A stretch of 63,656 bases of DNA, the filler included, from Reclinomonas americana ATCC 50394 (taxonomy: Eukaryota), in assembly GCA_048213135.1 (NCBI GenBank). It is 14 parts of 14 records of this genome, joined end to end, with 100 filler letters (N's around TTAATTAATTAA, not from the genome) between each part and the next. Parts side by side here need not be neighbours in the genome. Positions count along the whole stretch, not along the records: positions 52,931 to 62,202 come from AFZH01023784.1; 13 more parts are not named here. One strand, 5' to 3'. Positions 7,510-63,656 of the stretch are shown piece by piece. The translations under genes were made by a program, and so were the position numbers. The notes under the pieces are model-generated. The model did no database searches and was not told where the DNA came from. It saw only the letters and a list, made by a program, of their open reading frames with translations. Every line of letters starts with the position of its first letter. Positions within the stretch are counted from its first letter, which is position 1.

Positions 7510-7609
7510 NNNNNNNNNNNNNNNNNNNNNNNNNNNNNNNNNNNNNNNNNNNNTTAATTAATTAANNNNNNNNNNNNNNNNNNNNNNNNNNNNNNNNNNN
7601 NNNNNNNNN
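7510..7609. other. Artificial contig linker
   Basis: 44N-TTAATTAATTAA-44N. Confidence 0.99.
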
Positions 7610-9190
7610 GATGCCGCTGGCCTCATGCGAGAGCCTGGCTGCCTGCCGCGAGGCATCGGCCGCGGCCTTCACTGAAGCGGCGAGCTCCTCGGTGGTCGCG
7701 GCGCTCTCCTCCAGCGAGGAGGCCTGTTCCTCGGTGCGCTTGGAGAGATCGTCAGCGCCGCTGGTGATCTCGCGGCCGGCGGTCGCGACCTCGACGGAGG
7801 TCGCCTTGATCGCGTCGACGGTGGCGGCGAGGCGCTCGATCGCGCTGTTGAAGTCCTGTTTCAACGTCTCGTAGTCGGGCGCGACCGCATCCTCGATCCG
7901 CACGGTTAGGTCGCCCTGCGAGAGGCGGGCGAGCGCCTCGGCCAGAAGGGCGACGACCTCACGCTGCTCGGCTAGCAGGGAGCTCTGCGCCGCAGCGGCT
8001 TCCTCGCGCTGTCTGATGATGGCGAGATTCTGGCGTTCGGCCGCGGCCCGGCCCTCGCTGGTCTCGGCCTCCAGCCGCTGCACGGCGAGGCCGTTCTCCT
8101 TGAACACCTGCACGGCCTGCGCCATCTGGCCGATCTCGTCGCGGCGCGAGAGGCCGGCAATCGCGACCTCGTAATCGCCGGCGGCGAGCTTCAGCATGGC
8201 GTCGCGCAGGCGGCGCAAGGGAAGGGCGGTGGTGCGGCCGACAATGAAGGCAGCGATCAGGCCGAGCACCAGCGCGGCAGCGACCGTTCCGAGGATGATT
8301 CCTTGAGTCCGGCCCTGCGCCTCGGCGAGGCGGGCGCCGGCCTGGGCTTCCTCGGCCGAGAGCTTGGTTTCGAGCTCCTGCAACGGCGGAGCGATCAGAT
8401 CGAACTCGCCCGAGAGTTTCTCGCCGGCGAGCATGAAATCTTTTTCCGCCTTGCTCCAGGCCGGGACGATCTCGGCATAGGCCTTGAACGCCGGTTCGAT
8501 CTCGGCCTTGGCCTCGGCGGGAACGTCGGGACGACCGAGCGCGCGTTCGAAGCGGCCCTGCTCGACTTCCCATTGGCCGAGCAGACTCTCGTCGAGGGAA
8601 AGACGATAGGCGGCGTCGATCCGGCGCAAGGCCGCAAGAATGCCGGGCAGGCGCGCTAGGTCGGCCGAATCCGAGCCCATGCTGTTGGAGCGGACCTTGG
8701 TCCCCAGGGTGTCGGCTGCCTCCTCCACTTGCGCAGCCAGACCTTCCGGGGCGGCAGAACGCAAGGCGAGCTGCATTTTGCTGATGGCGGAGAAGTCGGC
8801 CTCGATCGCTTTCAAAGGCGCCTCGACTGCGGCGATGTCATCGCGCAGGCGCTCGGCGCCCGGCGAGCCGCCGAGGCGGGCGACCGCCTGCTTCAGAGAT
8901 TCAAGACCAGTCTTGAAGTCGTTGATATCCGTGGCTTCCTGGCGGAAGCGGACATCGCGGCTCTGCGCCTTCAGCGCGAAGCTCGCAGCGCGCACCTCGC
9001 GCGAGCGGGCGGCAAGGGCGGAATAGGCCTTGTGGTCCTCGAAGGCGGCGGTGAGTCGGCCGCTGCCGGTCCAGGACGCCATGCCGATCAGCACGAGGCC
9101 GAGGACGAAGACGACGCTGACCAGCGCGATCCTGAGCTGGATCGTCAGGCGCGATGCGGCCGAGCGCGAGTGTTCGGTAGACAACGCCAT
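7610..9190 (-). CDS. Methyl-accepting chemotaxis protein (2 TM, HAMP, MCP signal domain), 3' truncated
   Basis: TM1 and TM2; HAMP PLRRLRDAMLKLAAGD...RRDEIGQMAQAVQVFKEN; second HAMP LSQGDLTVRI; EITSGADDLSKRTEEQASSLEESAA. Confidence 0.93.
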
Positions 9191-9254
9191 GACCCTCACA
9201 CCTGTCGAGATCGGGCGAAAGCATGGCAAAACAGGCTTAATGTTCCGCTAAACG

Positions 9255-9289
9255 AAGAAGGCGCGGCCGTGAGGCCGCGCCTTTTTCTT
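9255..9289 (-). terminator. Rho-independent terminator hairpin (possibly bidirectional)
   Basis: AAGAAGGCGCGGCC-GTGA-GGCCGCGCCTTTTTCTT, 17 bp after the stop of the upstream MCP. Confidence 0.8.
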
Positions 9290-9306
9290 GGGCCGGCTCG
9301 TACGTC

Positions 9307-9467
9307 CTAGAACTCTTCCCAGCCGGCGTCGTCCGCGCGGGTATTGGCGTGCTTGCGGCCGGGGGCCTGGCGTGGCGCTGCCTTTTTCTGCTCGGCGATG
9401 GCAGCCGCGAGCTTGCGCAGGCGTTCCGGCTCCGCGCCCTGGCCGGTCGCGATCGCGGCCAGGTCGG
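9307..9467 (-). CDS. C-terminus of a second MCP ending in the CheR/CheB-tether pentapeptide
   Basis: Minus-strand frame ...PGRKHANTRADDAGWEEF*. xWxxF is the MCP C-terminal pentapeptide. Absent from the ORF track. Confidence 0.85.
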
Positions 9468-9567: not shown

Positions 9568-11885
9568 AAAGAACGCCCGCAAGAGGTAGAGGTGCGGCCC
9601 GGCTTTGATCCGACTGTGGAGAAGGTCTGCACCAGGAGCCTCTTCGGGCTGCCCGTTGCTCGCTTCTACACCATGTCCCGGCAGGAGGCCGGCTCGAACG
9701 TCACGACATCGATCAGCTATTCGCTCGACAGCCAGAACCAAGTGGCGCTCACATTCGACCTGGCGCTGCTGCAATGGCCGCTGCTTGCCTTGATGCGCTG
9801 GCTGGTGGAGGCGCGGGGATGGCAAAGCCCTGGGCGTCAGGCGACCCTCCTTTACGTTCTGCCGCGCCTAGGCGTCGATGCGCGTCCAGCGCTTCGCCGC
9901 CGCTACTTCTTGTTCGCGCTGCCCAGCACCGTCCTGCTGGTGGCCAGCATTGGGATTTTCGCGGCCTTGTGGGCAGGGCTGACGCTGCCGAGCGATCTGC
10001 CGCCTACTCTGTTGCTTGTCTCCAGATTGCCCGAAGCCACGGCGGTGATCGTCGCCCTGACGGCAATCGCAAGCGGCCGGGACGCCTTCTACGACGAGGC
10101 AGCGGGAATGAGCGTCGTCTATATCCGCGAAGAGATCGACGCGGCTGCACAGTTCCCGCAGTTGCCTGCGCCGGAGTCAAAGCAGGCGGGAACCAGCAAC
10201 GGCCTGCTTTCTCCCGTGCCTTGGGTGCCTTGGCGCTAGCTCTAATGCTCGTCCTCGTCTTCTTGGGCGAACTCGCCATGTCGATCGAGGGGGCGCGTGT
10301 CATGGCCGTGACCGCGCCGACTCTGGTGCTGTTCGGCGCGATGTCGAGTGAGTTGGTCTTTCAAGCGGGGCAGTGGTACCGGCTGGTCTGTTCCATATTC
10401 TTGCATGGCAGCACAGCCCACCTGTTTGCCAATGTCGTACTGCTCGTGATTGCCGGCTGGTTTCTTGAAGCCGTGCTCGGTATTGGCTGGCTGCTCGCGA
10501 TCTTCCTGCTGGGAGGATTGTCCGGCTCCCTCGCTTCGGTCAGCTTCAATCCGCCCGCCCTTCTGGGTATTGGCGCGTCCGGAGCCGTGCTGGCTCTCGT
10601 CGCTGCGGGCTTGGTACTCAGCTTCAGGAGGCCGGACACCACCCGAAACAGATGGCTGAGGGGCTTTTGCCTCGCAGCGCTTTTCGGCGCCGCTTTTTCG
10701 AGTACCGGGTTCGGCCCCATCCGCGTCGATCATGCCACGCATATCGCCGGTGCGCTGAGCGGTGGCGCGCTTGGTTTGCTCGTCTGGTGGAGCTGGGACC
10801 GCGAAACGGAGCGTCCGCGCTGGCGTCGGACCGCTCTCGCCAGTGCATTCCTTCTGCCCGCGCTGACGTTCCTGTCGATTCCCCGGGCGGGCTTTGGCGA
10901 CGTGTCCCTGGCGAGATTTCTGATACCGGAAGAACGCTTGCCCAAGACAGATGCTGAGTGGATAGCGCAATCCACCGAACTGGTACGGCGTTATCCTCGC
11001 GATCCTCGCAGCCATGTCGCCCGGGCACTGGCGCTCAATGACGACAAGGCGGAACGCGAGAAGTCATTGGCGCTGGTCAAGAGGACGCAGACGGATCTGG
11101 TGTCTACCGAAGGCCCGAAAGTCGAGCAGAATGCCTTGTTCCTGGTCGGTCAGGCTCGATTCAAGGCTCGGGATTGGGACGCTGCGAATGATCTCTTCAC
11201 CCGCGCCATCGCAATCAATGCGCCGACTCGGTCCGAAATTTTCGGTGCGCGTGCCGCGACAGCGCGTATGCTCGGCCGTCCGGAGGCTGCGTTGGATGAT
11301 CTGCAAGCCCAATTGCGATCGCAACTGGTCAATGCGGAGATACTCCAAAGCATGGCGGGCGCGCTATCCGACATGGGGCGCCACCCAGAGGCGCTGCAAA
11401 AGCTTGACGAAGCTCTGCTCCTCAATCCCAAGAACTTCGGCGCCACTCGCAGCCGCGGTTGGTATGCATTCCTCGACGGCCGCGCAGACGAAGCCGTTCG
11501 AGGCCTCGAACGTGCCGTGGAACTGAATCCGAACGATGCCTATGCCGTGCTTTTCCTGCATATCGCGTCCATGCGGGCAGGCCAGGGCGAGCGCATCACA
11601 GCATCTGGTGCAAAGGTCGATATGCAGGAATGGCCCGCGCCGATCATTCGATATTACCGTGGTGAGATTGACGCCGAGCAACTCCGCGAAGCTGCCAAGA
11701 ACCAGGATCAGGTCAAATACAATGAGCAGGATTGCGAGGCGAGCTTCTATATTGCCGAGGCGCGCCTCATGCAGGGGGCGACGAAGGACGCTGAACCGCT
11801 CCTGAGCCACGCGTGGCAAATCTGCCCGAAGACGTTCTATGAATGGGGTGCTGCCCGGGCCGAGCTACGCCGCATCGGTCAATAA
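9568..11885 (+). CDS. Membrane N-domain + rhomboid protease + TPR/NlpI-like domain; apparently one gene split by a 1-nt deletion near 10227, 5' truncated
   Basis: Rhomboid motifs WYRL...HGSTAHLFAN, GASG (catalytic Ser) and HATHIAG (catalytic His). TPRs, then an NlpI-like tail WPAPIIRYYRG...CEASFYIA...FYEW. The upstream frame ends PVPWV where rhomboid TM1 begins. Confidence 0.82.
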
Positions 11886-11916
11886 TGGGCTGTGGGAGCC
11901 TGTGCTCCTGCGCTGC

Positions 11917-12477
11917 TTACACTGCCGTCAGGCTCTTCATGAAGCCGGCGAAGCGCAGCAGCCCGTCCGGCCAGGGGCCGTGACCGGATTCGGTGTTGAG
12001 ATGGCCGCTGTCGCCGGCATCGACGAATTCCGAGCCCCAGGCATGCGCCAGCGCTTTCGCCTCGTCCGTCGTGCAATAGGGGTCGGTCGCGCTGGCGATC
12101 AGCACCGAGCGGAAGGGCAGGGTTTTTTGCGGGATCGCGGCGAAATCGTCGGCCATGCCGGGGATGGCCCGTTTGGCGCGCTCGGAAGCTGGCGCGACCA
12201 GGAAGGCGCCGGTGACCTCGTGGGGCTTAAGATGCTCGGCCGCATGCGCGACGGCGCTGCAGCCGGCCGAATGGGCGACTATGACGACCGGCTTGGTCGC
12301 GGCGCGCACGGCGGCGACGATGCGGTTCGCCCAGCCGTCGCGGGTCGGCTTGTACCAATCCTCCTGCTCGACGCGGCGGGCCGTGGGGAGCTTGGCCTCC
12401 CAGCGGCTCTGCCAATGGTCGGGGCCGGAGCCCGACCAGCCGGGAACGATGAGGATGTCGGTGTCGGAGGTTTTCAT
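11917..12477 (-). CDS. RBBP9/YdeN-family alpha/beta hydrolase
   Basis: ILIVPGWSGSGPDHWQ, nucleophile AHSAG, SATDPY, GHLNTESGHGPW. Confidence 0.92.
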   Translation of the reverse strand: MKTSDTDILIVPGWSGSGPDHWQSRWEAKLPTARRVEQEDWYKPTRDGWANRIVAAVRAATKPVVIVAHSAGCSAVAHAAEHLKPHEVTGAFLVAPASERAKRAIPGMADDFAAIPQKTLPFRSVLIASATDPYCTTDEAKALAHAWGSEFVDAGDSGHLNTESGHGPWPDGLLRFAGFMKSLTAV

Positions 12478-12486
12478 CGTTGTGGC

Positions 12487-12733
12487 TTACAGAAGCACGA
12501 CGCCGGCTGCCAAGGCGGCAGCGCGCAGTTGGGTGTCGAAGGTGGCGAGCGGCCGGCGCAGGCGGAGCGCCAATTCGAGATAGGCTGCATCATAGACCGT
12601 CAGTCCATATTGCAAGGCGAGAACAGCGCTCTGCCGTTGAGCGATCAGAGCGTCGGCCTCATCGGGTTCGACAGAGAGTCCTTCCAGTGCCTTGAGGAGT
12701 TCCGCTACCATTGCGGTTCCGATGCGGCCACGC
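12487..12733 (-). CDS. vapC: VapC-family PIN toxin (5' truncated)
   Basis: LALQYGLTVYDAAYLELA...PLATFDTQLRAAA is a typical PIN C-terminus. Confidence 0.88.
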
Positions 12734-52930: not shown

Positions 52931-55900
52931 GTTGCACGAACAATGTCACCAGTGACTGTGTTTGTCGCAGTGACGCTGTCACCAAACACGGTTCCTCCGG
53001 CTGTGATGTCTGTCGATGCCGTAATCATGTTCGCTGATACGTTACCCATGGTCGTGATGTTGTCGCTGTTGAAGTCGACATCCGGGCCGACTGCGTTGGT
53101 GAGTTGGTTGCCCATGATCATAAGCTTGCCAGCGTTCAACGTCGTCGTCGCCGTCAGTGAATCCGCAACAATGGCATTGGATGCAGTCACGTTGTCGGCT
53201 GTCACATTTCCTGTCACTGATGCGTCACCAGTAATCTTAGCGCTCGCTGCAGTTACTGAGCCGCCGATTACTGCGCCACTTGTCGTAATGTTGTTTGTAC
53301 CGAAATTCACGTCGGCCCCGGTCGGGTTGGAAATGGTATTGCCCATAATCTCAATCTGCGCCACAGTCAAGCTTGTTGACGCGTTGACTGACGTGGCCAA
53401 CACTCCACCCTGTGTGGTAATGTTCTCCGACCCGAAATCCACCAAATCGCCACTCGGGTTCGTGATGCTTCCCATGTTAATCTGGAGCACACCGTCCGTA
53501 ATCGTCGTACCAGTGACTGTTGTCGCACTGACAGTGGATGCCTGGAGGCCCTCTGCAATGACATTTCCAGTCGTCACAATGTCCTCTGTGGCAAAGTCAA
53601 CTGTGGTTCCACTTGGATTGTGAATCGTTCCGTTTTCAATCACAAGAGTCCCGTCAGTCAACGTCGTTCCACTCACAGTTGTGGCAGTGACAGTGTTTGC
53701 TGAGACTGCGTTAGCATTAACGGCATCCGCGCTCACGTCTCCAGTCGTCGTCAAATTTTCTCCACCGAAGTCAACTGCAGGTCCAGTCGGATTCGTAATG
53801 CTGCCGTTTGACATCAAGAGGAAGCCGTCTGTCACAGATTTTGCGTTTACCGCCGTCGCGAATACCGATCCAGTTGATCGAATATTCTCAGCACCGAATG
53901 ACACGTCGCCTGAACCAGTGGTAATTGTGCCGTTGGTTCCGTCGTGCGTCAAAATCAACGTATTGGTTCCCGCACCGATGGTGACAGTGCTACCTGCGCC
54001 AGTGGCACTGATGTTTGTTGACGTCGAGACGTTGCCGAGGTCGTCTACCGAAAAGTTGCCAGCGGTGCCCACGCGTGCTGAAGTGCCGCGCAATTCGCTG
54101 GTCGCCGTCACCGAAGCACCAGTCACCGATCCAAGTGTTGTCAAATTCTCGTTGCCGAAGTCAACAACGAAACCAGAAGGGTTTGTGATGCGACCACCGG
54201 CAATTTCGAGAGTGCCGTCAGACAGAGTTGCCGCGGTAATGACTCCAGTCGTCAAGAGATCTTCGCTTCCAAAGCTAACCGTGGTGCCTGTCGGGTTGGT
54301 GATTGCCCCGTTTGCGATGGTGAGCGTCCCGTCTGTCAAAGTTGCGGCGGTCACTGTTCCGCGAGTCACCAAGTCCTCAGACCCGAACGAAATCGAAGTG
54401 CCGATGGGGTTGGTAATTGCACCGTGCGAGATTTCAATCGTTCCATCTGTCAGCGTTGTAGCAGTCACAGTCGTTCCCGTAAAAGCATACGCGTCAACAT
54501 TTCCAGTGGTCACCAAGTTCTCGGCGCCGAAATTCACAGTCGTTCCAGATGGATTCGTAATGCTACCGTTCGCCATCACCAACACACCGTCGGTAAGCGA
54601 AGTGCCAGAAATCGTTCCTGCTTGCACATTGCCGGACGTCACAAGGTTCTCGATGCCAAAGTCGACGCCGTGCCCGACGGGTTTGTGATGCTGCCTCCAG
54701 AAATCTCCAGAACGCCGTCAGTAAGAGTTCCGCCAGATACTGTGCCAGCAGATACAGTCGTGGCTGTGACAGCAACAGCTGCAACGGTACCAGTGGTCGT
54801 CAGATCCTCTGCGCCGAAGTCAACTGCTGCTCCTGCAGGATTGGTGATGGAGCCGCCCGAAATTTCGAGGGTTCCGTCCGTCAAAACAGTCGCAGCCACG
54901 GACGATGCAGTCACACTGTTCGCCGCGACACCGCTAGCGTTCACTTGCCCAGTTGTCGTCAGATTCTCTGCACCAAAGTCAACAGCAAGTCCGACTGGGT
55001 TCGTGATAGATCCGTGCGAAATCTGGAGCGTCCCGTCCGTCAAAACAGAACCGCGCACCGTAGCCGCAGTTACTTCGCCAGTTGTCGAGACGTTGTCATC
55101 GTCAAAAGAAATCGTTCCGTTCACAGCATCAGTGGAGATAACCGTTGTCGTGCCGGGCACAATCGTAAGCAAACGACGAGCAGTGTTTCCCACTGTCAGC
55201 GAGTCGTCAGCGGTAACAGTTCCTGCGCGTGCGTTGCCGGAGACAACCAGCTCGCCGAGGTTTCCTGTAGCATACTTGTTAGCAATTTGAGTTGTTGATT
55301 GTGCGAATCAGAGCTGTTGACACACACCTTGAGCAATCACTGCCTTATTGGCAGACACAGCTGTCGCTGACACACTGCCAGTGGTCGTGAGATTGTCGTC
55401 ACCAAACGAAATGGTTCCGTTGATCGCGTCAAGCGACACTTCCGTCGCACCAACTCCAGGTGAGATTGTCAAAATGCGGTTCGCGACAGTTCCAACAGTC
55501 AAGGTCGACCGGGCGGTGATGTCGTCACCAGAAACATCGTTGAATGAAGCCTCGCCAGCAGTGAGGCTTCCACTGATGGCAACGGTGCCAAAAGAGCCCG
55601 ATGCAGCGGAAACACCGCCGCTCGCCGCAAGCGATGCTCCGTGAATGTCACCAGTTGTCGACAAAGTCTCGTCGCCGAATGAAATCGTTCCGTGGACCGC
55701 GTCAAGAGAAATCTCGGTCGTTGGTCCAGGAGTGATGGTCAGAATGTTATCGGTTGTGTCGCCCACCGTAAGCATGCCACCCACGGATACGTCAGTGCCG
55801 CTGACATTACCAAACGTCGCCGTTCCGCCGACAATGTTACCAGAAGTGAGCAAGTTTCCGCTTGCACCGATAGTGAGCGCACCACCGGCAAACGTCGCCG

Positions 55901-58900
55901 TTGTGCTGCTGATGTTAGCACTCGTCGTGATGTTATCGTCACCGAAAGAAATGATTCCTCCGACAGCGTCAAGCGAAATCTCGGTTGTCGCGCCTGGAGT
56001 GATCGACAGAACCTTGTCAGTCGTATCACCAACAGTGAGTTTGCCGGTCGCCAGAACCTCACGCCCGGAGAGAAGCCCGCCGGCTAAGGTCGTGTCAGTG
56101 AGTAGACAGATTGCATGCAGAACACGACGCAATGAGCACAAATCTTACCAGTAATGTCGTTCGCGCTGACAAATGAGTCGACAGCAACGGTCGTTGCCGA
56201 CACAACACCAGTTGTTGTCAGGTTTTCTTCTCCAAAGTCAATCGTCGTGCCCATCGGATTGGTGATCGTTCCCAAAGTCATCACCAACGTGCCGTCGGTG
56301 AGCGTCGCCGCAGAAACCGTGTCCGAAAAGACGGTGCCAGTGGTGGTAATGTTCTCCTCGCCAAAATCAACTGCGGAAACAATGCACGAGTTAGAATTGG
56401 TGTGGAGGTGTGGAAACGATCCCTGCCGACGCACTGTTTGGTCCAGTGGGATTCGTAATGCTTCCGTCTGAAATCTCAATCTGACCGTCTGTCAATGTTC
56501 CAGCAGCCACCTGTGGGTAAAACATACAAGATGCGCAAGTTGATGAGTCTTGTCTGCACCGCCGTCATGTTCCACAGCACTGAAAAACAAACCTTGCGGG
56601 CTCCGACGCTACCACCACTGACAATGTCATTGACTCCAAAGTCAATAACAGGGCCGGTTGGGTTGGTGATCGAGTTTCCGACAATCGTCAGGGTGCCGTC
56701 CGTCAGTGTTGCAGCGGAAACCACACGACTGAGCACTGAGCCACGAGTGTGTAGGTCTTCGTCGCCAAAGTCGATCGACGATCCCAGCGGATTGACAATC
56801 GTTCCTGCGTTGATCTTTGATGCCGTCACAGTGTCTGCCGTCACTCCACCAGCGCTTGTCACCAAGCTTGCGGCGCTGATAACGTCAGCAGCCACAGTAC
56901 CAGGCGTGGTCAAGTTGCCGCCAGAAATGTCAAGCGTGCCATCAGTGAGCGTCGAAGCGGAGACAAGATTCGCGCTGACAGTCTGGCCAGTGATCTTCTT
57001 GCCGGTGATGTCACCGGTCGTCTTCAGGTCGCTCGATCCGAAATCCAAGGTACCGCTTGAGCTCGTGATAGTTCCCGACCCGAGCACAATGTTGTCGATA
57101 GTCGCAGTTCCGTGAACTTCAAGCTTGTCGTCGATAATTACGCTGTGGTGAATGAATATTCGTCAGAAACATGGCTTCTTACAGACCCGACGAAATGCAG
57201 CGTGCGACGAACCATTGGCTTTCGAAACATTCACAGTGAGCACCGGAGTACCCCGGATTGCAAACACACGCATTGGTCTGGTTCGGATCGCACCGACCAC
57301 GACCCTCCGCATAGCCGCTGCACGAGACGATCGTTTCATAATGAACAGAACGACCAGTATGCGTAGGTGGCTGGTAAAAAGGAAAAGCACACAAACCATG
57401 ACGATTGGTGGCAAGTGCAACTGAGGCCGCCGAATCCGGCTGTGCAAGCACAGCGACCATCGGTGCTGTGCGGATCGCACGTCGAGTTCGGTGGGCTGCA
57501 AAGTATGGCCAGGTTTAGTGCCAATCATTCGGTTACAGGGCATAGTAAAGCGTTCTCTTTCCCACTGCCTCACCACAGCGCTTCTTCGCAGGCACACGTC
57601 GCTCCACCGAATCCAGGGTCGCAACGGCAACTTCCATCAGCGGCATTTGGATCGCAGCTCGCATGTGGCGGGCTGTACGTCAGGGCAGTGTCAAAAATCT
57701 CTTCACAGTCCGACACCTCTGCCGACCAACATTACCATCGGGACTCGACACACGCACAGTTGATGCCACCGATTCCGGGCTCACAGAGGCAGCTGCCATC
57801 AGCGGCGTTGGGATTGCACACGCCCCATTTGCTGTGGATTGTTCACAAGCACACGAAAAGGGTAAGCACTCGCACGGTGAAACGGGTCTTGTTATGACTA
57901 CGCACCAGTTCGCTTCGAGGCACAGGCAGTTTGCGCCACCAAAGCCATCAGCACAGCGGCAACGGCCATCAGCTGCAACCGGATCGCATGACTGGTTCGG
58001 ACCACTGCACATGCAACGAAAGGAAATCAGATTGAAATTCTGATTCGTGCAAAATAATAGAAAAATTTCTTACCAGCTGGCTTGCGAACATCCGCAGTTC
58101 ACACCACCAAAGCCGGGCGGGCAAGAGCACGAGCCGTCAGTCGCGGTCGGCGCGCAGTGTCCTCCGTTCAAGCTGTGGAAATGGACGTTGAGAAAGACCT
58201 ACTGATAGTGTGAAGAGAATCTGGCACTATCTTGTCGCACGTACCAATCGGACTGGCGACACTTGCAGTAGGCACCACCGTAACCCGGAGCGCACAGGCA
58301 TGAACCGTCAACCGCGTTGGGATCGCACGTTCCGTTCGGCGCGCTGCGAATATTAGGAGAAACGAATTAAGAACGCGTCAAATAATTGGGCACGGTTGCT
58401 GACGACCAACGTGGTACACATGCTACTCACCAAGACGATGAGACACAGGCGCTGCGAGGGGTGCACAGCAACATTTGCCACTGTTAGTCAGAAGTGTATA
58501 TTAGTCGTCAATGACAAGAATTTCGCGTTTCGTACCAATTTGCTCCGCCACGGCCAGGAAGGCAGTCCGTGCTGCACGAACCGTCTGCCGCAAGCGCGTC
58601 ACACGTAGTGCCAAGAGCGGCACTGAATTCATTGGTCAGTGAGTCTGCATTTCAAAAAGACTCCATGACAATCTGATGACGTACCACGTCGACGTCGCAC
58701 ACGCGCAGTTCGATCCGCCGAAGCCGGCAGGGCACAGGCACTTGTGGGTCATGTTGTCGCAGATGCCACCATTGAGGCAGGTTCCCGGACCGCAGGGGGG
58801 AATGCTGCAGGAACCGTCGCCGGCCGCTCCATCATTGCAGAGCGAACCCTGAGGGCATGTGCAGTAGTTTCCACACGTCGGGCCGTAGAACCCCGGACTG

Positions 58901-59683
58901 CAGGTGCAAAACCCGGTACTCGGATTGCAGACACCGTGCCCAGAACTGTGTGCAGTCAGTTAGCATTCGGTATGTGATCAGACATTTGTACTTGTTACCA
59001 ACCACTGATGCGTGCACAGGTCGACAAATGCAGGAATGCTGCAGTCGATTCCATGCCACATTGGTTGGCACGTGCAGCTGACACCGTCAGGGTTGCACAC
59101 TCCGTTTCCGTGGCAGGTCACCGACGGCTGGCAATTGCTGTTACCAAACAAAAAGAACCACAAACAATGAATCAAACTAAATAGGGCAACATTCACACAA
59201 AAATCCTGCAACACATGCGCACCAACGATCGCCGCCAAATCCTGGTGCGCAAGAGCACAGTCCAGTTGACGGGTTGCAGGCGCCATTCGTGGGACCTCCG
59301 CAAGTCTGAATGTTGTTGCACTGACACTGAGGGCCGAGCCAATCAGCATCGCACACGCAAGAACCGCTCTGGCATGTTCCATGCCCGGAGCTGCAGGAGT
59401 TGGTGAGGCGCAGATTGTAGTCAGCATTTCGAACAACAGCAAGTGGGTGGACATTGACAACGTATAAATCACCAGTCTGCGTTGGAAGTGCAAGCGGCGG
59501 TAACCAGCAAAGGCTGCAAGGTGAGAAGCAGCGCCAGAGCGAGCACCAAGCTTGCTACAAATGCATTTGACACCTGCGATTAATGCAAAATAACATTGTC
59601 AATTAGATGTCCAGTTGCAGTCCACGGTTGCCAGCTGCCGTGCTTACCGAAGTGGATGAACGACGGAAGTTGAATCCCGTCAT
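52931..59683 (-). CDS. Large secreted protein: signal peptide + ~13-14 EGF-like repeats + ~22 beta-rich fibre-like repeats, 3' truncated, one apparent frameshift near 54667
   Basis: MTGFNFRRSSTS|VSNAFVASLVLALALLLTLQPLLVTA; EGF exons (CSGHGTC...CxCxPGFGGxNC) at ~57190-59480; repeats LTDGTLxIxxGSITNPxGxxVDFGxENLTTTG at 52931-57140. Confidence 0.85.
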
Positions 59684-61417: not shown

Positions 61418-62078
61418 CTACGTCGAGTTGGAGGGTGCAGTGGTGGTGGTGGCAGCGCCATCGCCATCCTTGGACGTCTGCCGCTTGAACTGCACCAAGA
61501 CGGGGTAGATGTTGCGGAAAGCTGAGTAAATGTCCTCTTTTGTCTGTGGTTGAATGACAGTACACGGCATGTTAATGTGGCGCGGTAAGCAGCACGTGCG
61601 ACTGCGTAGCTTGTGGTGTACCTTGGCGCCAGTCAGCACAACTTTCCCGGAGGCAAATATCAGCAGCGCGACTTTCGGGACCAGCATGCGGTACACCGCT
61701 CCGGGGAACAGCTCTGGCTCGTACTGCCGACACATACGCGTCGGTGTTAGCACCGGCTCACGAATACGCACGTGTACAGGTAGGGGGTGTGCGATACGGC
61801 GACTCGCGTACCGTGACAAATATCTCGTGCTGGGTGGCAAGTAACTCCAGACGCACTTGAAAGCGCACGTCGCAGGAGGCAACAATGTTCTGAATCTTGA
61901 AATCCTGCTCAACCCACTTGGCGGGGAAGTCAAGCTTTTGAATAATACGCGCATACTTGCGTGCCGCTATCCGTGACTGGTGTTCGCTCTTTGCTCCCGT
62001 GACAACAATACGACCAGAGGCAAAGATGAGCGCCGTCGTTTTGGGGTCGCGGATTCGCATGATAACCGCGGCAAAGCG
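61418..62078 (-). CDS. TBP: TATA-binding protein, 3' exons (5' missing)
   Basis: [22 protein letters not shown]...[12 protein letters not shown]...[12 protein letters not shown]...YEPELFPG...[15 protein letters not shown]. Confidence 0.96.
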
Positions 62079-62115
62079 CTGCAAGTACCCAACAACAGCG
62101 TAAACGCGATACCAT

Positions 62116-62179
<64 letters not shown>

Positions 62180-62202
62180 GACGACTACGTACGTTACGTT
62201 GT

Positions 62203-62302: not shown

Positions 62303-62303
62303 G

Positions 62304-62465
62304 GTCCTCGATGCACTCGGTGACGCCGGATACCGCGACGTGGAAGAAGTGAAGACGGCTGAGGAGGATCTGATGTTCTCTCTGCCCAAGGAGCTGCGCC
62401 AGGACTCCACCGGCCAGCGCGACGCCCGGGCGCTCGGCGGTCGTGCCTCAGGAGGAGGCGCGTAG
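62304..62465 (+). CDS. ispH: C-terminus of IspH/LytB (HMBPP reductase), actinobacterial type
   Basis: [32 protein letters not shown]...*. Absent from the ORF track. Confidence 0.85.
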
Positions 62466-62467
62466 CG

Positions 62468-63259
62468 GTGAGCCCGACGGAGGGCGAGCCGACTCTCATC
62501 GGGTCGGTGCAGCGCGCACTCCGTCTCGTCGACATCGTCGCGAACTCGCCCCGTCCGCTGCCGGCGAAGATGCTGGCCACCGCCACCGGGCTGACCCCCG
62601 GCACGACGTACAACCTCATCCGAACTCTGATCCACGAGGGATATCTGTCCGCGGAGCCCGATGGCCTCGTGCTCGGCACCCGGTTCCCGTCCTTCCAGCA
62701 GGAGATCGACTCGCGAGGGGTTTTCCTCGCCCGCGTGCGCTCCGCCCTGCGGAAGGTGACGGAGGAGGTCGGCGCGACCGCCTATCTGTCTCGCTTCGAC
62801 GACGGCGAGATGCACCTCGTCGACATCGTCGACGCCGTGCACAATCCGCGGGTCGAGCTCTGGGTCGGCCTGCAGTCCAGCGCCCACGCCACGGCCCTCG
62901 GCAAGCAGATCCTCGCGGAGCTTCCCGACGAGCACCGGCTCGACTACCTGGCGCGGCACCGCCTGGAGGAGCTGACGCCTCGCACCATCAGCGATCGCCA
63001 CACGCTGCTGACGCAGCTCGAGCATTCTCCGGGCTGGGTGGTGGATCAGGAGGAATACGTCATCGGAGCGACGTGCGTCGCCGTGCCGGTGATCGCTCCG
63101 AACATCACCGCCTCGCTGGCGATCTCGCTGCCCTCGGAGCTCGCCGTCGTGGATCGAGCACTGGTTTCCCGTCTCCAGAGCGTGGCGCGGAGGCTGTCTC
63201 TCCAGCTCGGAGCCGATGCGTTGGACGCGGGCACGCCCGATGTCGAGTTCACTATCTGA
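62468..63259 (+). CDS. IclR-family transcriptional regulator
   Basis: IGSVQRALRLVD HTH, GTTYNLIRTL, AHATALGKQILA, EEYVIGATCVAVPV; GAGGAG RBS upstream. Confidence 0.93.
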   Translation: MSPTEGEPTLIGSVQRALRLVDIVANSPRPLPAKMLATATGLTPGTTYNLIRTLIHEGYLSAEPDGLVLGTRFPSFQQEIDSRGVFLARVRSALRKVTEEVGATAYLSRFDDGEMHLVDIVDAVHNPRVELWVGLQSSAHATALGKQILAELPDEHRLDYLARHRLEELTPRTISDRHTLLTQLEHSPGWVVDQEEYVIGATCVAVPVIAPNITASLAISLPSELAVVDRALVSRLQSVARRLSLQLGADALDAGTPDVEFTI

Positions 63260-63295
63260 AGTTTCCGCTCTAGCGCGGGGGGGCGAGGGTCTTCC

Positions 63296-63301
63296 TATGA
63301 T
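63296..63301 (+). promoter_or_regulatory. -10 element TATGAT
   Basis: TANNNT hexamer 5 nt upstream of the first hairpin of the candidate sRNA. Confidence 0.5.
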
Positions 63302-63306
63302 CAGAA

Positions 63307-63449
63307 CTGTAGGCGTCTGTGCAAACGGCCCTGCAGATTCGCGGAGGGTCCCCAGCTCTGCGTGAATCCACTTGGATGACGAGCGTCCCCAGCGTTCCGA
63401 GTCCGCGGCCCCGAGGAGTCCCCAATTCTCCGGGGCCGCCATCATTTTC
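63307..63449 (+). ncRNA. Candidate sRNA: four hairpins, three with GUCCCCA loops
   Basis: Stems 63307-63336, 63336-63368, 63371-63401 and 63405-63439; GTCCCCA at 63348, 63385 and 63418; weak T-tract after the last stem. Confidence 0.65.
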
Positions 63450-63500
63450 GGCGGTGTCCTGCTGTGAGCCGCTCCGAGCCACGGCGATTAGCATGGCGGG

Positions 63501-63656
63501 ATGACCGATCAGCGTCCTCAGTACGGCGAACTCGCGACCCCCGAGGAGCAGCGGAGAGCGGCGGGTCTTCCGCCGCTGAGCGAGGTCGTGGCTGAGCCGG
63601 TCTTCACGACCCCAGCGCCGGGGCCGGTCGTCGCGGATGCGGCTCCGCGCCGCCCC
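63501..63656 (+). CDS. N-terminus of a Microbacteriaceae membrane protein (DUF6264-like)
   Basis: MTDQRPQYGELATPEEQRRAAGLPP. The RPQYGExATPEEQR motif is recalled from proteins encoded downstream of ispH. Confidence 0.65.
   Translation, partial: MTDQRPQYGELATPEEQRRAAGLPPLSEVVAEPVFTTPAPGPVVADAAPRRP

Follow-up and report, generated by a model that had tools for sequence, protein, structure and literature searches.

The window analysed here, meaning the whole stretch of DNA under study, comprises 63.6 kb (63,656 nucleotides (nt), filler included) of the genome assembly of Reclinomonas americana ATCC 50394, in which 14 contigs are joined by 13 spacers of the form 44-N / TTAATTAATTAA / 44-N. Most of the contig at 52931-62202 (9,272 bases) is taken up by a predicted minus-strand gene that joins an N-terminal hydrophobic signal and an array of epidermal growth factor (EGF)-like units to a long shaft of repeats related to those of tailed-phage fibres; we refer to it as the EGF-fibre gene. 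The gene model was built by reading the sequence and testing every in-phase acceptor, with the ATG at 59683 as the start. It has 19 exons separated by 18 introns, every one of them GT..AG and 57-87 nt long, and its reading frame is open to residue 1234. The encoded protein has at least 1,812 amino acids (aa), its C-terminus being cut off by the end of the contig. An earlier reading of this DNA, the original prediction, had proposed a spliced gene with an EGF array and a repeat shaft, without stating its strand; that outline stands, whereas some of its exon and motif details do not. The parts of the gene are as follows (the two types of repeat unit are defined below).

59648-59683, minus strand: exon 1, the first 12 codons with the start codon (MTGFNFRRSSTS); begins with the first Met of the stop-to-stop open reading frame (ORF) and has a GTAAGC donor
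59473-59573, minus strand: exon 2, hydrophobic, putative signal peptide or signal anchor (FVASLVLALALLLTLQPLLVTAA); ends in the first split Cys codon (TG/N)
57213-59390, minus strand: exons 3-14, EGF-like array of ~14 six-Cys units, from Pfam and Cys count
57143-57212, minus strand: intron 14, the EGF-to-fibre junction, 70 nt, GTTCGT..CAG, phase 2
56593-57142, minus strand: exon 15, start of the fibre, without Met
56435-56510, minus strand: exon 16, part of one repeat unit (...GSITNPTGPN), the rest of which lies in exon 17 (IDFGEENITTTG) past a 64-nt GT..AG intron
56149-56370, minus strand: exon 17, two type-1 units
55328-56083, minus strand: exon 18, three type-2 units
52931-55264, minus strand: exon 19, one type-2 unit and 13 more anchored units, open to the contig end
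54664-54671, minus strand: 1-nt frameshift within a repeat unit (GSITNPSGTA / VDFGIENL)

Exons 1 and 2 encode MTGFNFRRSSTSVSNA (starting MTGFNFRR) followed by FVASLVLALALLLTLQPLLVTAA, with a peak 19-residue Kyte-Doolittle mean of 2.28; the segment could be a signal peptide that is cleaved off or a signal anchor of type II. The 83 Cys encoded in exons 3-14 fall within ~460 aa (501 aa for the EGF part with its N-terminal signal) and are equivalent to ~13.8 six-Cys units. The earlier call of ~13-14 EGF units behind an N-terminal signal is borne out. Judged by its sequence, the array belongs to the EGF-like domain superfamily: when ten EGF exons were scanned, five scored at or above the curated Pfam cut-off for one of EGF_2, EGF_Teneurin and EGF (EGF_2 scores include 33.3, 31.0 and 29.8 bits vs a cut-off of 22.1), and the remaining five match the same families below the cut-off. 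Introns 2-14 are all in phase 2 and each splits a Cys codon as TG/N, so that the EGF exons are symmetric modules. Exons 8-14, of 96-105 nt, carry one EGF unit apiece, and one unit is divided by an extra intron into exons of 87 nt and 21 nt. The proposal of one short exon per EGF unit therefore holds for ~8 units (exons 6/7 to 14) but not for the first 5-6, which are packed into three larger exons. The array resembles those of teneurins and tenascins in its tandem six-Cys units of ~31-33 aa and in its best Pfam families (EGF_Teneurin and EGF_2); it differs in that its exons are symmetric in phase 2 and split within a Cys codon, and in that no other teneurin or tenascin domain accompanies it. 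Animal EGF exons are typically in phase 1.

The fibre part extends over at least 1,311 Thr/Gly-rich residues, encoded by exons 15-19 with lengths of 550, 76, 222 and 756 nt and, for the last, 2,334 nt or more. It contains 23 anchors of the FGxENL type, spaced 35-91 aa apart. Sixteen of the 23 units conform to LTDGTLxIxxGSITNPxGxxVDFGxENLTTTG (type 1), and four follow LTVGDTTDxxLTITPGxTTEISLDAVxGTISFGDxNLTTTG (type 2). Two more, at anchors 536 and 1491, lack the NP and have a phage-like form, and one anchored unit is degenerate. The ~22 copies of two repeat types that had been predicted are thereby recovered, with 16 ITNPxG..VDFG units, four LTVG-type units, two phage-like units and a degenerate one. 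The exon of more than 2.3 kb is also present, spanning 55264-52931, although it is open only if the 1-nt frameshift is read through; the 577 codons 3' of the frameshift stay open in the new frame and retain the repeats. Tandem Repeats Finder found no DNA-level tandem repeat, which argues that the repeat units are old rather than an assembly artefact. The fibre part carries 28 N-x-S/T sequons, 11 of them in the predicted trimer core. One motif assignment did not survive: HDGxN, previously taken for a viral-type motif, occurs once (LILTHDGTNG), and in alignment it falls into an ordinary repeat unit that has 4 aa inserted rather than onto the phage motif DVTLTHVADAG.

The two parts meet at intron 14, which keeps the phase-2 TG/N split of a Cys codon seen in the preceding 12 introns. 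Exon 15 supplies the C of the split codon as its first base (57142), and the Cys so formed is the sole one among the 1,311 aa of the fibre; it is apparently left over from the intron phase of the EGF array. The ORF of exon 15 opens just 7 codons upstream of the acceptor, after a stop, and has no Met inside it, while the first Met of the fibre part comes only at residue 741. The junction phase and the lack of an early Met argue against two separate genes. Per kb of coding sequence there are 9.3 introns in the EGF part and 1.0 in the fibre, a drop as sharp as originally described. Codon choice is similar on both sides (GC content at third codon positions 0.62 for EGF, 0.57 for fibre), and the fibre part as a whole has a GC content of 0.54 vs 0.36-0.47 in the metagenome loci described below. 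Moreover, intron 16 sits within a repeat unit, and splicing joins ...GSITNPTGPN to IDFGEENITTTG and restores the exact consensus, which is direct evidence from the sequence that this part of the gene is eukaryotic and spliced rather than contamination from a phage. A 465-nt contig from a DNA sequencing run, which may share the same sample, matches 54946-55410 and spans intron 18 with its flanking fibre exons; it stops short of the frameshift site and of the EGF/fibre junction. These sequence features support one spliced eukaryotic gene that joins the EGF array and the fibre.

The fibre was searched as four pieces (P0001-P0004), of which P0001 is the last 577 aa, after the frameshift, and P0003 and P0004 are among the other pieces. 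None of the four gave a curated-level match in Pfam or PHROGs, or a Pfam match to Peptidase_S74. A phmmer search of P0001 against 1.84 billion cluster representatives returned 41 bias-corrected matches at E<=1e-3, the best with E 4.6e-22 and 42% identity; identity reached at most 51%, and there was no near-identical entry. Word-indexed searches added eight further matches. All library matches bear arrays of GSITDxxGxISFGxENLxTTG units, and none of the 48 fetched is Cys-rich. Among the 26 matches scanned for domains, seven have a C-terminal Peptidase_S74, one a Peptidase_G2 and one a T4_gp9_10_N domain. Tail-category PHROGs are found in 8 of these 26, and phrog_36164, a family annotated as 'unknown function', lies over the repeat in 11. 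From such sequence matches, the repeat array is significantly similar to proteins with the hallmarks of phage tail fibres.

For the scan of metagenome loci, alignment A1 was too diverse, and an alignment built from the window's own units (A2) was used instead. With A2, 253 of 625 pattern matches proved to be relatives, in 64 marine loci and at 32-50% identity; an earlier metagenome scan with P0001 alone had found no relative. In all 64 loci the match lies in a single uninterrupted ORF of 227-1,903 aa with 0-5 Cys and a GC content of 0.36-0.47, and no Pfam domain was found at 1e-5 in the 55 repeat ORFs scanned. Nine loci were examined for neighbouring genes and have a coding fraction of 0.90-0.98. 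A gene for phrog_677, 'baseplate wedge tail fiber protein connector', is present in six of the nine and stands directly upstream of the repeat ORF in four (L002, L013, L027 and L011); a second repeat protein often follows the repeat ORF. Similarly, 259 of 426 pattern matches in IMG/VR were relatives, from 57 loci, with tblastn E values down to 9e-38 over residues 4-521. Across 185,579 prokaryote genomes the exact string FGNENLTTTG is confined to nine stretches, every one in a metagenome-assembled genome, from scattered phyla. A scan of genome contigs with A2 found none, though it used only the eukaryote-specific ITNPxGxxVD pattern and is not comparable to the viral and metagenome scans. A tblastn search of cultured phages with P0008 gave no match. 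Since cultured phages were negative and the metagenome and IMG/VR scans positive, the family appears to reside mainly in uncultured marine tailed phages. The placeable relatives look like tailed phages and none was identified from a large eukaryotic virus; the proposed kinship with phage and large-virus fibres is supported for phage tail-fibre proteins. No relative bearing EGF domains or introns was seen among the fetched matches and the metagenome loci.

Several features of the phage proteins and their loci were recorded in passing. L002, L011, L013, L027 and others have a common gene order: phrog_30607, then the phrog_677 connector, next an ORF of up to 1,903 aa for a giant repeat shaft, and last a second repeat protein, which matches phrog_36164. 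Some marine phage loci have a glycosyltransferase gene (phrog_1962) upstream. Six of the library matches (P0007, P0008, P0028, P0033, P0038 and P0042) have in common the N-terminus M..H.R..I.N.SQHPY.H..., which matched no Pfam family at 1e-3 and no PHROG at 1e-5 in the members scanned; it may serve a group of uncultured phages as their virion-attachment domain. Against cultured phages, P0005 and P0014 matched a tail-fibre protein of Synechococcus phage S-SM2, a candidate that was set aside because the match runs through the C-terminal domain only and the S-SM2 protein lacks the repeat.

Structure prediction bears on how the repeats would assemble. An AlphaFold2 (AF2) monomer model of P0001 (577 aa, 51-row alignment) was poor, with a predicted local distance difference test score (pLDDT) of 55.7 and a predicted TM-score (pTM) of 0.32, too low a quality for a fold search. 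A sequence search of the PDB with P0001 and profile A1 gave 0 matches at E<=1. By contrast with the monomer, a homotrimer of three copies of P0001 residues 1-200 (54064-54663, five units), predicted without an alignment, reached ipSAE values of 0.89, 0.90 and 0.90, vs 0.00 for the best of three controls, with a partner pLDDT of 94. The mark for ipSAE was calibrated on two copies, not three, and is reached by 21 of 30 structures of same-chain pairs and by 0 of 23 single-chain structures. At least 97% of contacts are common between runs, and there are more than 1,100 inter-chain contacts, which recur with the period of the repeat. In each unit the stretch xVDFGxENLTTTGxVxAAT and the turn IxxGxITN make up the predicted interface. 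At the level of a model, the trimeric fibre foreseen in the original prediction is upheld, and the prediction supports, short of proof, the fibre repeat being an obligate intertwined homotrimer.

The array has diverged from the phage repeats in a consistent way. I[TSH]NPxG occurs 14 times in the EGF-fibre gene vs none among 838 anchors in 121 phage and metagenome loci, where IT[DSNT]xxG is found instead (735 times); LTDGT occurs nine times here and is absent from the same 121 loci. The eukaryotic array is therefore a derived and internally coherent subtype and, taken together with host-like codon use and the four introns of its own, this implies that any transfer is old. Of the 23 anchors here, 11 have the core N-x-S/T sequon, vs 606 of 809 anchors in 102 phage ORFs (Fisher p 0.0065, a value that overstates the case because repeat units are not independent), and Asp replaces the Asn of the core sequon at 8 of 23 anchors vs 9 of 809 in the phage relatives. 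This N-to-D shift may reflect a purging of N-glycosylation sites from the trimer core, a suggestive pattern at most. A shift of this kind would be expected if a cytoplasmic phage fold had to traverse an N-glycosylating endoplasmic reticulum (ER).

Like the repeat-shaft fibre and baseplate proteins of uncultured marine tailed phages (GSITDSSGAISFGNENLTTTG units), which are its closest relatives by sequence, the EGF-fibre protein has the unit core GSIT...G.I.FG.ENL.TTG in long arrays, at 31-50% identity over up to ~518 aa, and trimer hallmarks are found on both sides, as Peptidase_S74 in 7 of 26 relatives and as the homotrimer model here. The phage proteins differ in being uninterrupted, Cys-poor ORFs with virion-attachment N-termini (T4 gp9/10-like and others); their genes lie directly downstream of the baseplate connector gene in four of nine loci, with the connector elsewhere in two more. 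The EGF-fibre protein differs in its putative secretion signal, its EGF array and its spliceosomal introns, as well as in a derived unit (ITNPxG and a longer LTDGTLxIxxG hairpin) and a type-2 unit without phage relatives. No phage virion or baseplate attachment domain, of the gp9/10 type or other, is found at its N-terminus, which has the signal and the EGF array instead.

Among eukaryotic proteins, the nearest precedent in concept is MYRF (myelin regulatory factor), which is reported to carry an ICA/triple-beta-helix segment, homologous to parts of phage tailspikes, that drives homotrimerisation and cleavage (PMC3742443, PMC8326128), and the likeness is that of a eukaryotic protein reusing a trimerisation part of the phage-fibre type (PMC3742443, PMC8326128). 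MYRF differs in having a short stalk and a Peptidase_S74-type chaperone within a transcription factor, whereas the protein described here has a repeat shaft of more than 1,300 aa and EGF modules; no S74 domain was found on its available sequence, which ends inside the array. The stramenopile mastigoneme proteins PnMas1/PPTG_02441 are described as extracellular hair proteins of ~64 kDa that have a signal peptide and 3-4 EGF-like domains but lack a transmembrane segment (PMC12223298). They are alike by description only, in the signal and the EGF-like domains, and differ in that they are described without the fibre repeat (PMC12223298).

The rest of the window provides the genomic context. Its eukaryotic contigs encode WD40, TPR_10/12, GEVED, CLU and TBP domains, and its bacterial contigs encode IclR, Ser_hydrolase and Rhomboid+TPR proteins (all from Pfam). 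This mixture indicates that the source was not axenic or that the assembly is contaminated, and in so fragmentary and mixed an assembly contamination and chimerism are the first alternatives to exclude. The features concerned are listed here.

7610-9467, 9568-12733 and 62303-63656: high-GC bacterial contigs
7562-9247, minus strand: 561-aa ORF that resembles a methyl-accepting chemotaxis protein, by eye only
9609-11882, plus strand: Rhomboid+TPR (Pfam)
11920-12486, minus strand: Ser_hydrolase (Pfam)
62363-63256, plus strand: IclR regulator (Pfam)
61418-62202, minus strand: TBP gene, on the same contig and strand as the EGF-fibre gene and upstream of it (Pfam TBP, E 6.7e-26 and 9e-17)

Two GT..AG introns, 88 and 78 nt long and with the donors GTACGC and GTACAC, interrupt the TBP gene (read by eye). 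They are of the same style as the introns of the EGF-fibre gene, with similar GTAC donors, which we count in favour of a genuine nuclear gene. The 5' end of the TBP gene is truncated by the contig end, beside a long (TG)n microsatellite at ~62090-62180. No paralogue of the EGF-fibre gene was found in the other 13 contigs of the window. A tblastn search with seven S74 segments likewise found nothing credible in the window; a match at 8268-8416 (E 4e-4) was rejected, as it lies on a 64%-GC bacterial contig within the ORF resembling a chemotaxis receptor. Two further loci are recorded for completeness. Two paralogous ORFs of ~640 aa with TPR_10/TPR_12, NPHP3-like repeats lie on one contig (16123-18051 and 20926-22839, both minus strand) and have the N-terminal motif ...SSSSCSWLLSQSPAQLVG... 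in common, and a 641-aa ORF at 40699-42621 (minus strand) has a GEVED domain (E 1.2e-17) on a contig rich in (GA)n-derived low-complexity sequence.

Based on these findings, we favour a real chimeric gene that encodes a trimeric extracellular fibre of phage-type ancestry, with a probability of roughly 0.6; the break in the frame, a C-terminus that is cut off, the dependence on one fragmentary contig and the failure to find any eukaryotic relative hold it at this level. We infer a transfer that most likely brought the repeat module from a phage or its bacterial host long ago. The fibre segment would have landed in a phase-2 intron of an array of EGF exons that was already there and would then have gained four introns and drifted to its own subtype (ITNPxG, the LTDGTL hairpin and the N-to-D change at the core sequon). 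The original prediction of a horizontally acquired fibre grafted onto an EGF module agrees with a single gene and with its phage-fibre relatives, but the direction and date of the graft are not shown. In the protein, the N-terminal hydrophobic signal, either cleaved or retained as a type-II anchor, would send the chain into the ER and secretory pathway. The ~14 EGF modules would form a disulfide-rich stalk, followed by a shaft of at least 1,311 aa, whose units of 35-90 aa are akin to the GSITDxxGxISFGxENLTTTG repeats found in fibre and baseplate proteins of marine tailed phages. Three chains would intertwine along the shaft into a long rigid fibre, probably glycosylated at the remaining 28 sequons, and the trimeric fibre would tie three EGF stalks together. 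Going by the dimensions of phage fibres, we would guess a length of ~100 nm or more. The fibre might project from the cell or be shed by it, as a hair, spike or adhesin, and an uncleaved anchor would give a topology mimicking that of a phage fibre, with the base attached and the tip distal. A role as a hair, a spike or an adhesin for bacteria is plausible. A bolder version, in which a phagotrophic or surface-active protist has domesticated a phage receptor-binding fibre on an EGF stalk at its cell or flagellar surface, where it would catch bacteria or act as a hair or spike, is in our view improbable as it stands.

A number of observations weigh against a functional chimera of phage-type ancestry. 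The frame is broken by 1 nt at 54664-54671, and the contig ends at 52931 inside the repeat array, cutting off a C-terminus that would include any anchoring, tip or S74 chaperone region. The assembly is fragmentary, with bacterial contigs mixed in. No solved structure matches by sequence, and any fold class, such as a triple beta-helix or a beta-spiral, would come from a predicted model. In the same model, glycosylation at the 11 trimer-core sequons (of 28 in the fibre) could hinder a tight trimer. The similarity to phage proteins lies in repeats that are short and rich in Thr and Gly, at 31-50% identity. For P0001 there is no Pfam match and no PHROG match below 0.029; the sole PHROG match below 1e-3 is that of P0004 to phrog_37895, a 28-position profile (E 3.6e-6), and phrog_36164 reaches just E 0.012, on P0003. 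A tblastn search of P0001 against 50,697 cultured-phage records (INPHARED), with the low-complexity filter on, found no match. Type-2 units are without significant relatives, as a word search against longer proteins found none and local phmmer gave at most 29 bits against the fetched phage proteins. The ITNPxG subtype is absent from all 121 loci, and with no donor sequence among them convergence or an unsampled eukaryotic family could account for it. Finally, the nearest ESM Atlas entries to P0001 and P0004 include Eukaryota/Chlorophyta clusters named 'Uncharacterized protein (Fragment)' at scores of 0.91-0.92, a lead only, with shared features of 127-148 of 256 that are rated weak.

The frameshift could be either a sequencing error or a real lesion. 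Programmed frameshifting and a micro-intron at 54664-54671 were both rejected, as exactly one base is missing and no host-size GT..AG intron is there. If the lesion is genuine, the chimera would be real but dead, a recently inactivated pseudogene or a decaying relic of transfer. We regard this as unlikely: the 1-nt change does fall inside an otherwise canonical repeat unit, but it is the sole lesion in a coding sequence of ~5.4 kb, the 577 codons past it are open with conserved repeat units, the splice sites of all 18 introns are intact, and single-base indels are probably common in fragmentary assemblies. Far less credible is that the EGF and fibre parts are two separate genes, or that the assembler fused eukaryotic with phage or bacterial DNA. 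Such an origin would suit the bacterial contigs in the window and the abrupt change in intron density at the junction, but it would have to accommodate four host-size GT..AG introns in the fibre, one of them within a repeat unit, a fibre GC content of 0.54 vs 0.36-0.47 in phage loci, and an exon 15 that starts 7 codons past a stop and has no Met ahead of residue 741. It would also leave the junction sharing its intron phase and TG/N split with the EGF introns, and the 465-nt contig of a separate DNA run, possibly from the same sample, spanning intron 18 with its flanking fibre exons.

A different objection is that nothing was transferred into the eukaryote, either because the repeat arose or persisted there independently, by convergence on a trimeric beta-fibre, or because phages took it from eukaryotes. 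This is doubtful in our judgement. The 14 occurrences of ITNPxG and nine of LTDGT here vs 0 in 121 phage and metagenome loci would fit it, as would the host-like codon use, the four introns within the fibre, the type-2 units without phage relatives and the Atlas chlorophyte fragment clusters at 0.91-0.92, although the latter scores rest on low shared-feature counts (127-148 of 256). The common motif (GSIT-x3-G-x-I/V-x-FG-x-EN-L-TTTG) is long and specific, however, with bias-corrected phmmer E values to 4.6e-22 and tblastn values to 9e-38 over residues 4-521; the units at anchors 536 and 1491 retain the phage-type form without NP, and relatives abound in phage contexts, with no EGF- or intron-bearing relative found. 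That the fibre is instead a monomeric beta-solenoid rod, bactofilin- or hexapeptide-like, is very unlikely. Weak pointers to the Bactofilin and Hexapep families came from Pfam and the Atlas, but the monomer model was poor (pLDDT 55.7, pTM 0.32), the trimer model was confident (pLDDT 94, ipSAE 0.90 vs 0.00), and 7 of 26 relatives end in the trimer-specific Peptidase_S74 chaperone. A chimeric gene for a trimeric fibre thus remains the reading that we prefer.

To our knowledge, a structural gene of a tailed phage almost never ends up as a functional part of a nuclear gene in a eukaryote. The known example is MYRF, with a short module for trimerisation and cleavage that derives from a tailspike (PMC3742443, PMC8326128). 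We found no report of a chimera of EGF domains and a phage fibre in open-access papers and bioRxiv, and what is new here is a phage-type fibre repeat in a eukaryotic, spliced and predicted secreted context. If the gene is expressed, it would indicate that a fibre of phage architecture is adaptable to the secretory pathway of a eukaryote, with the N-to-D shift as a hint of that adaptation, and that such grafts can arise when a segment inserts into an array of modules in a compatible exon phase. Expression would also give a structurally uncharacterised phage repeat family, without a relative in the PDB, a tractable homologue. Moreover, the gene offers a concrete candidate for a protist's extracellular fibre. 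Should the domestication prove true, the protist would have an organelle component of phage structural origin, which would be a second, independent and much larger case beside MYRF.

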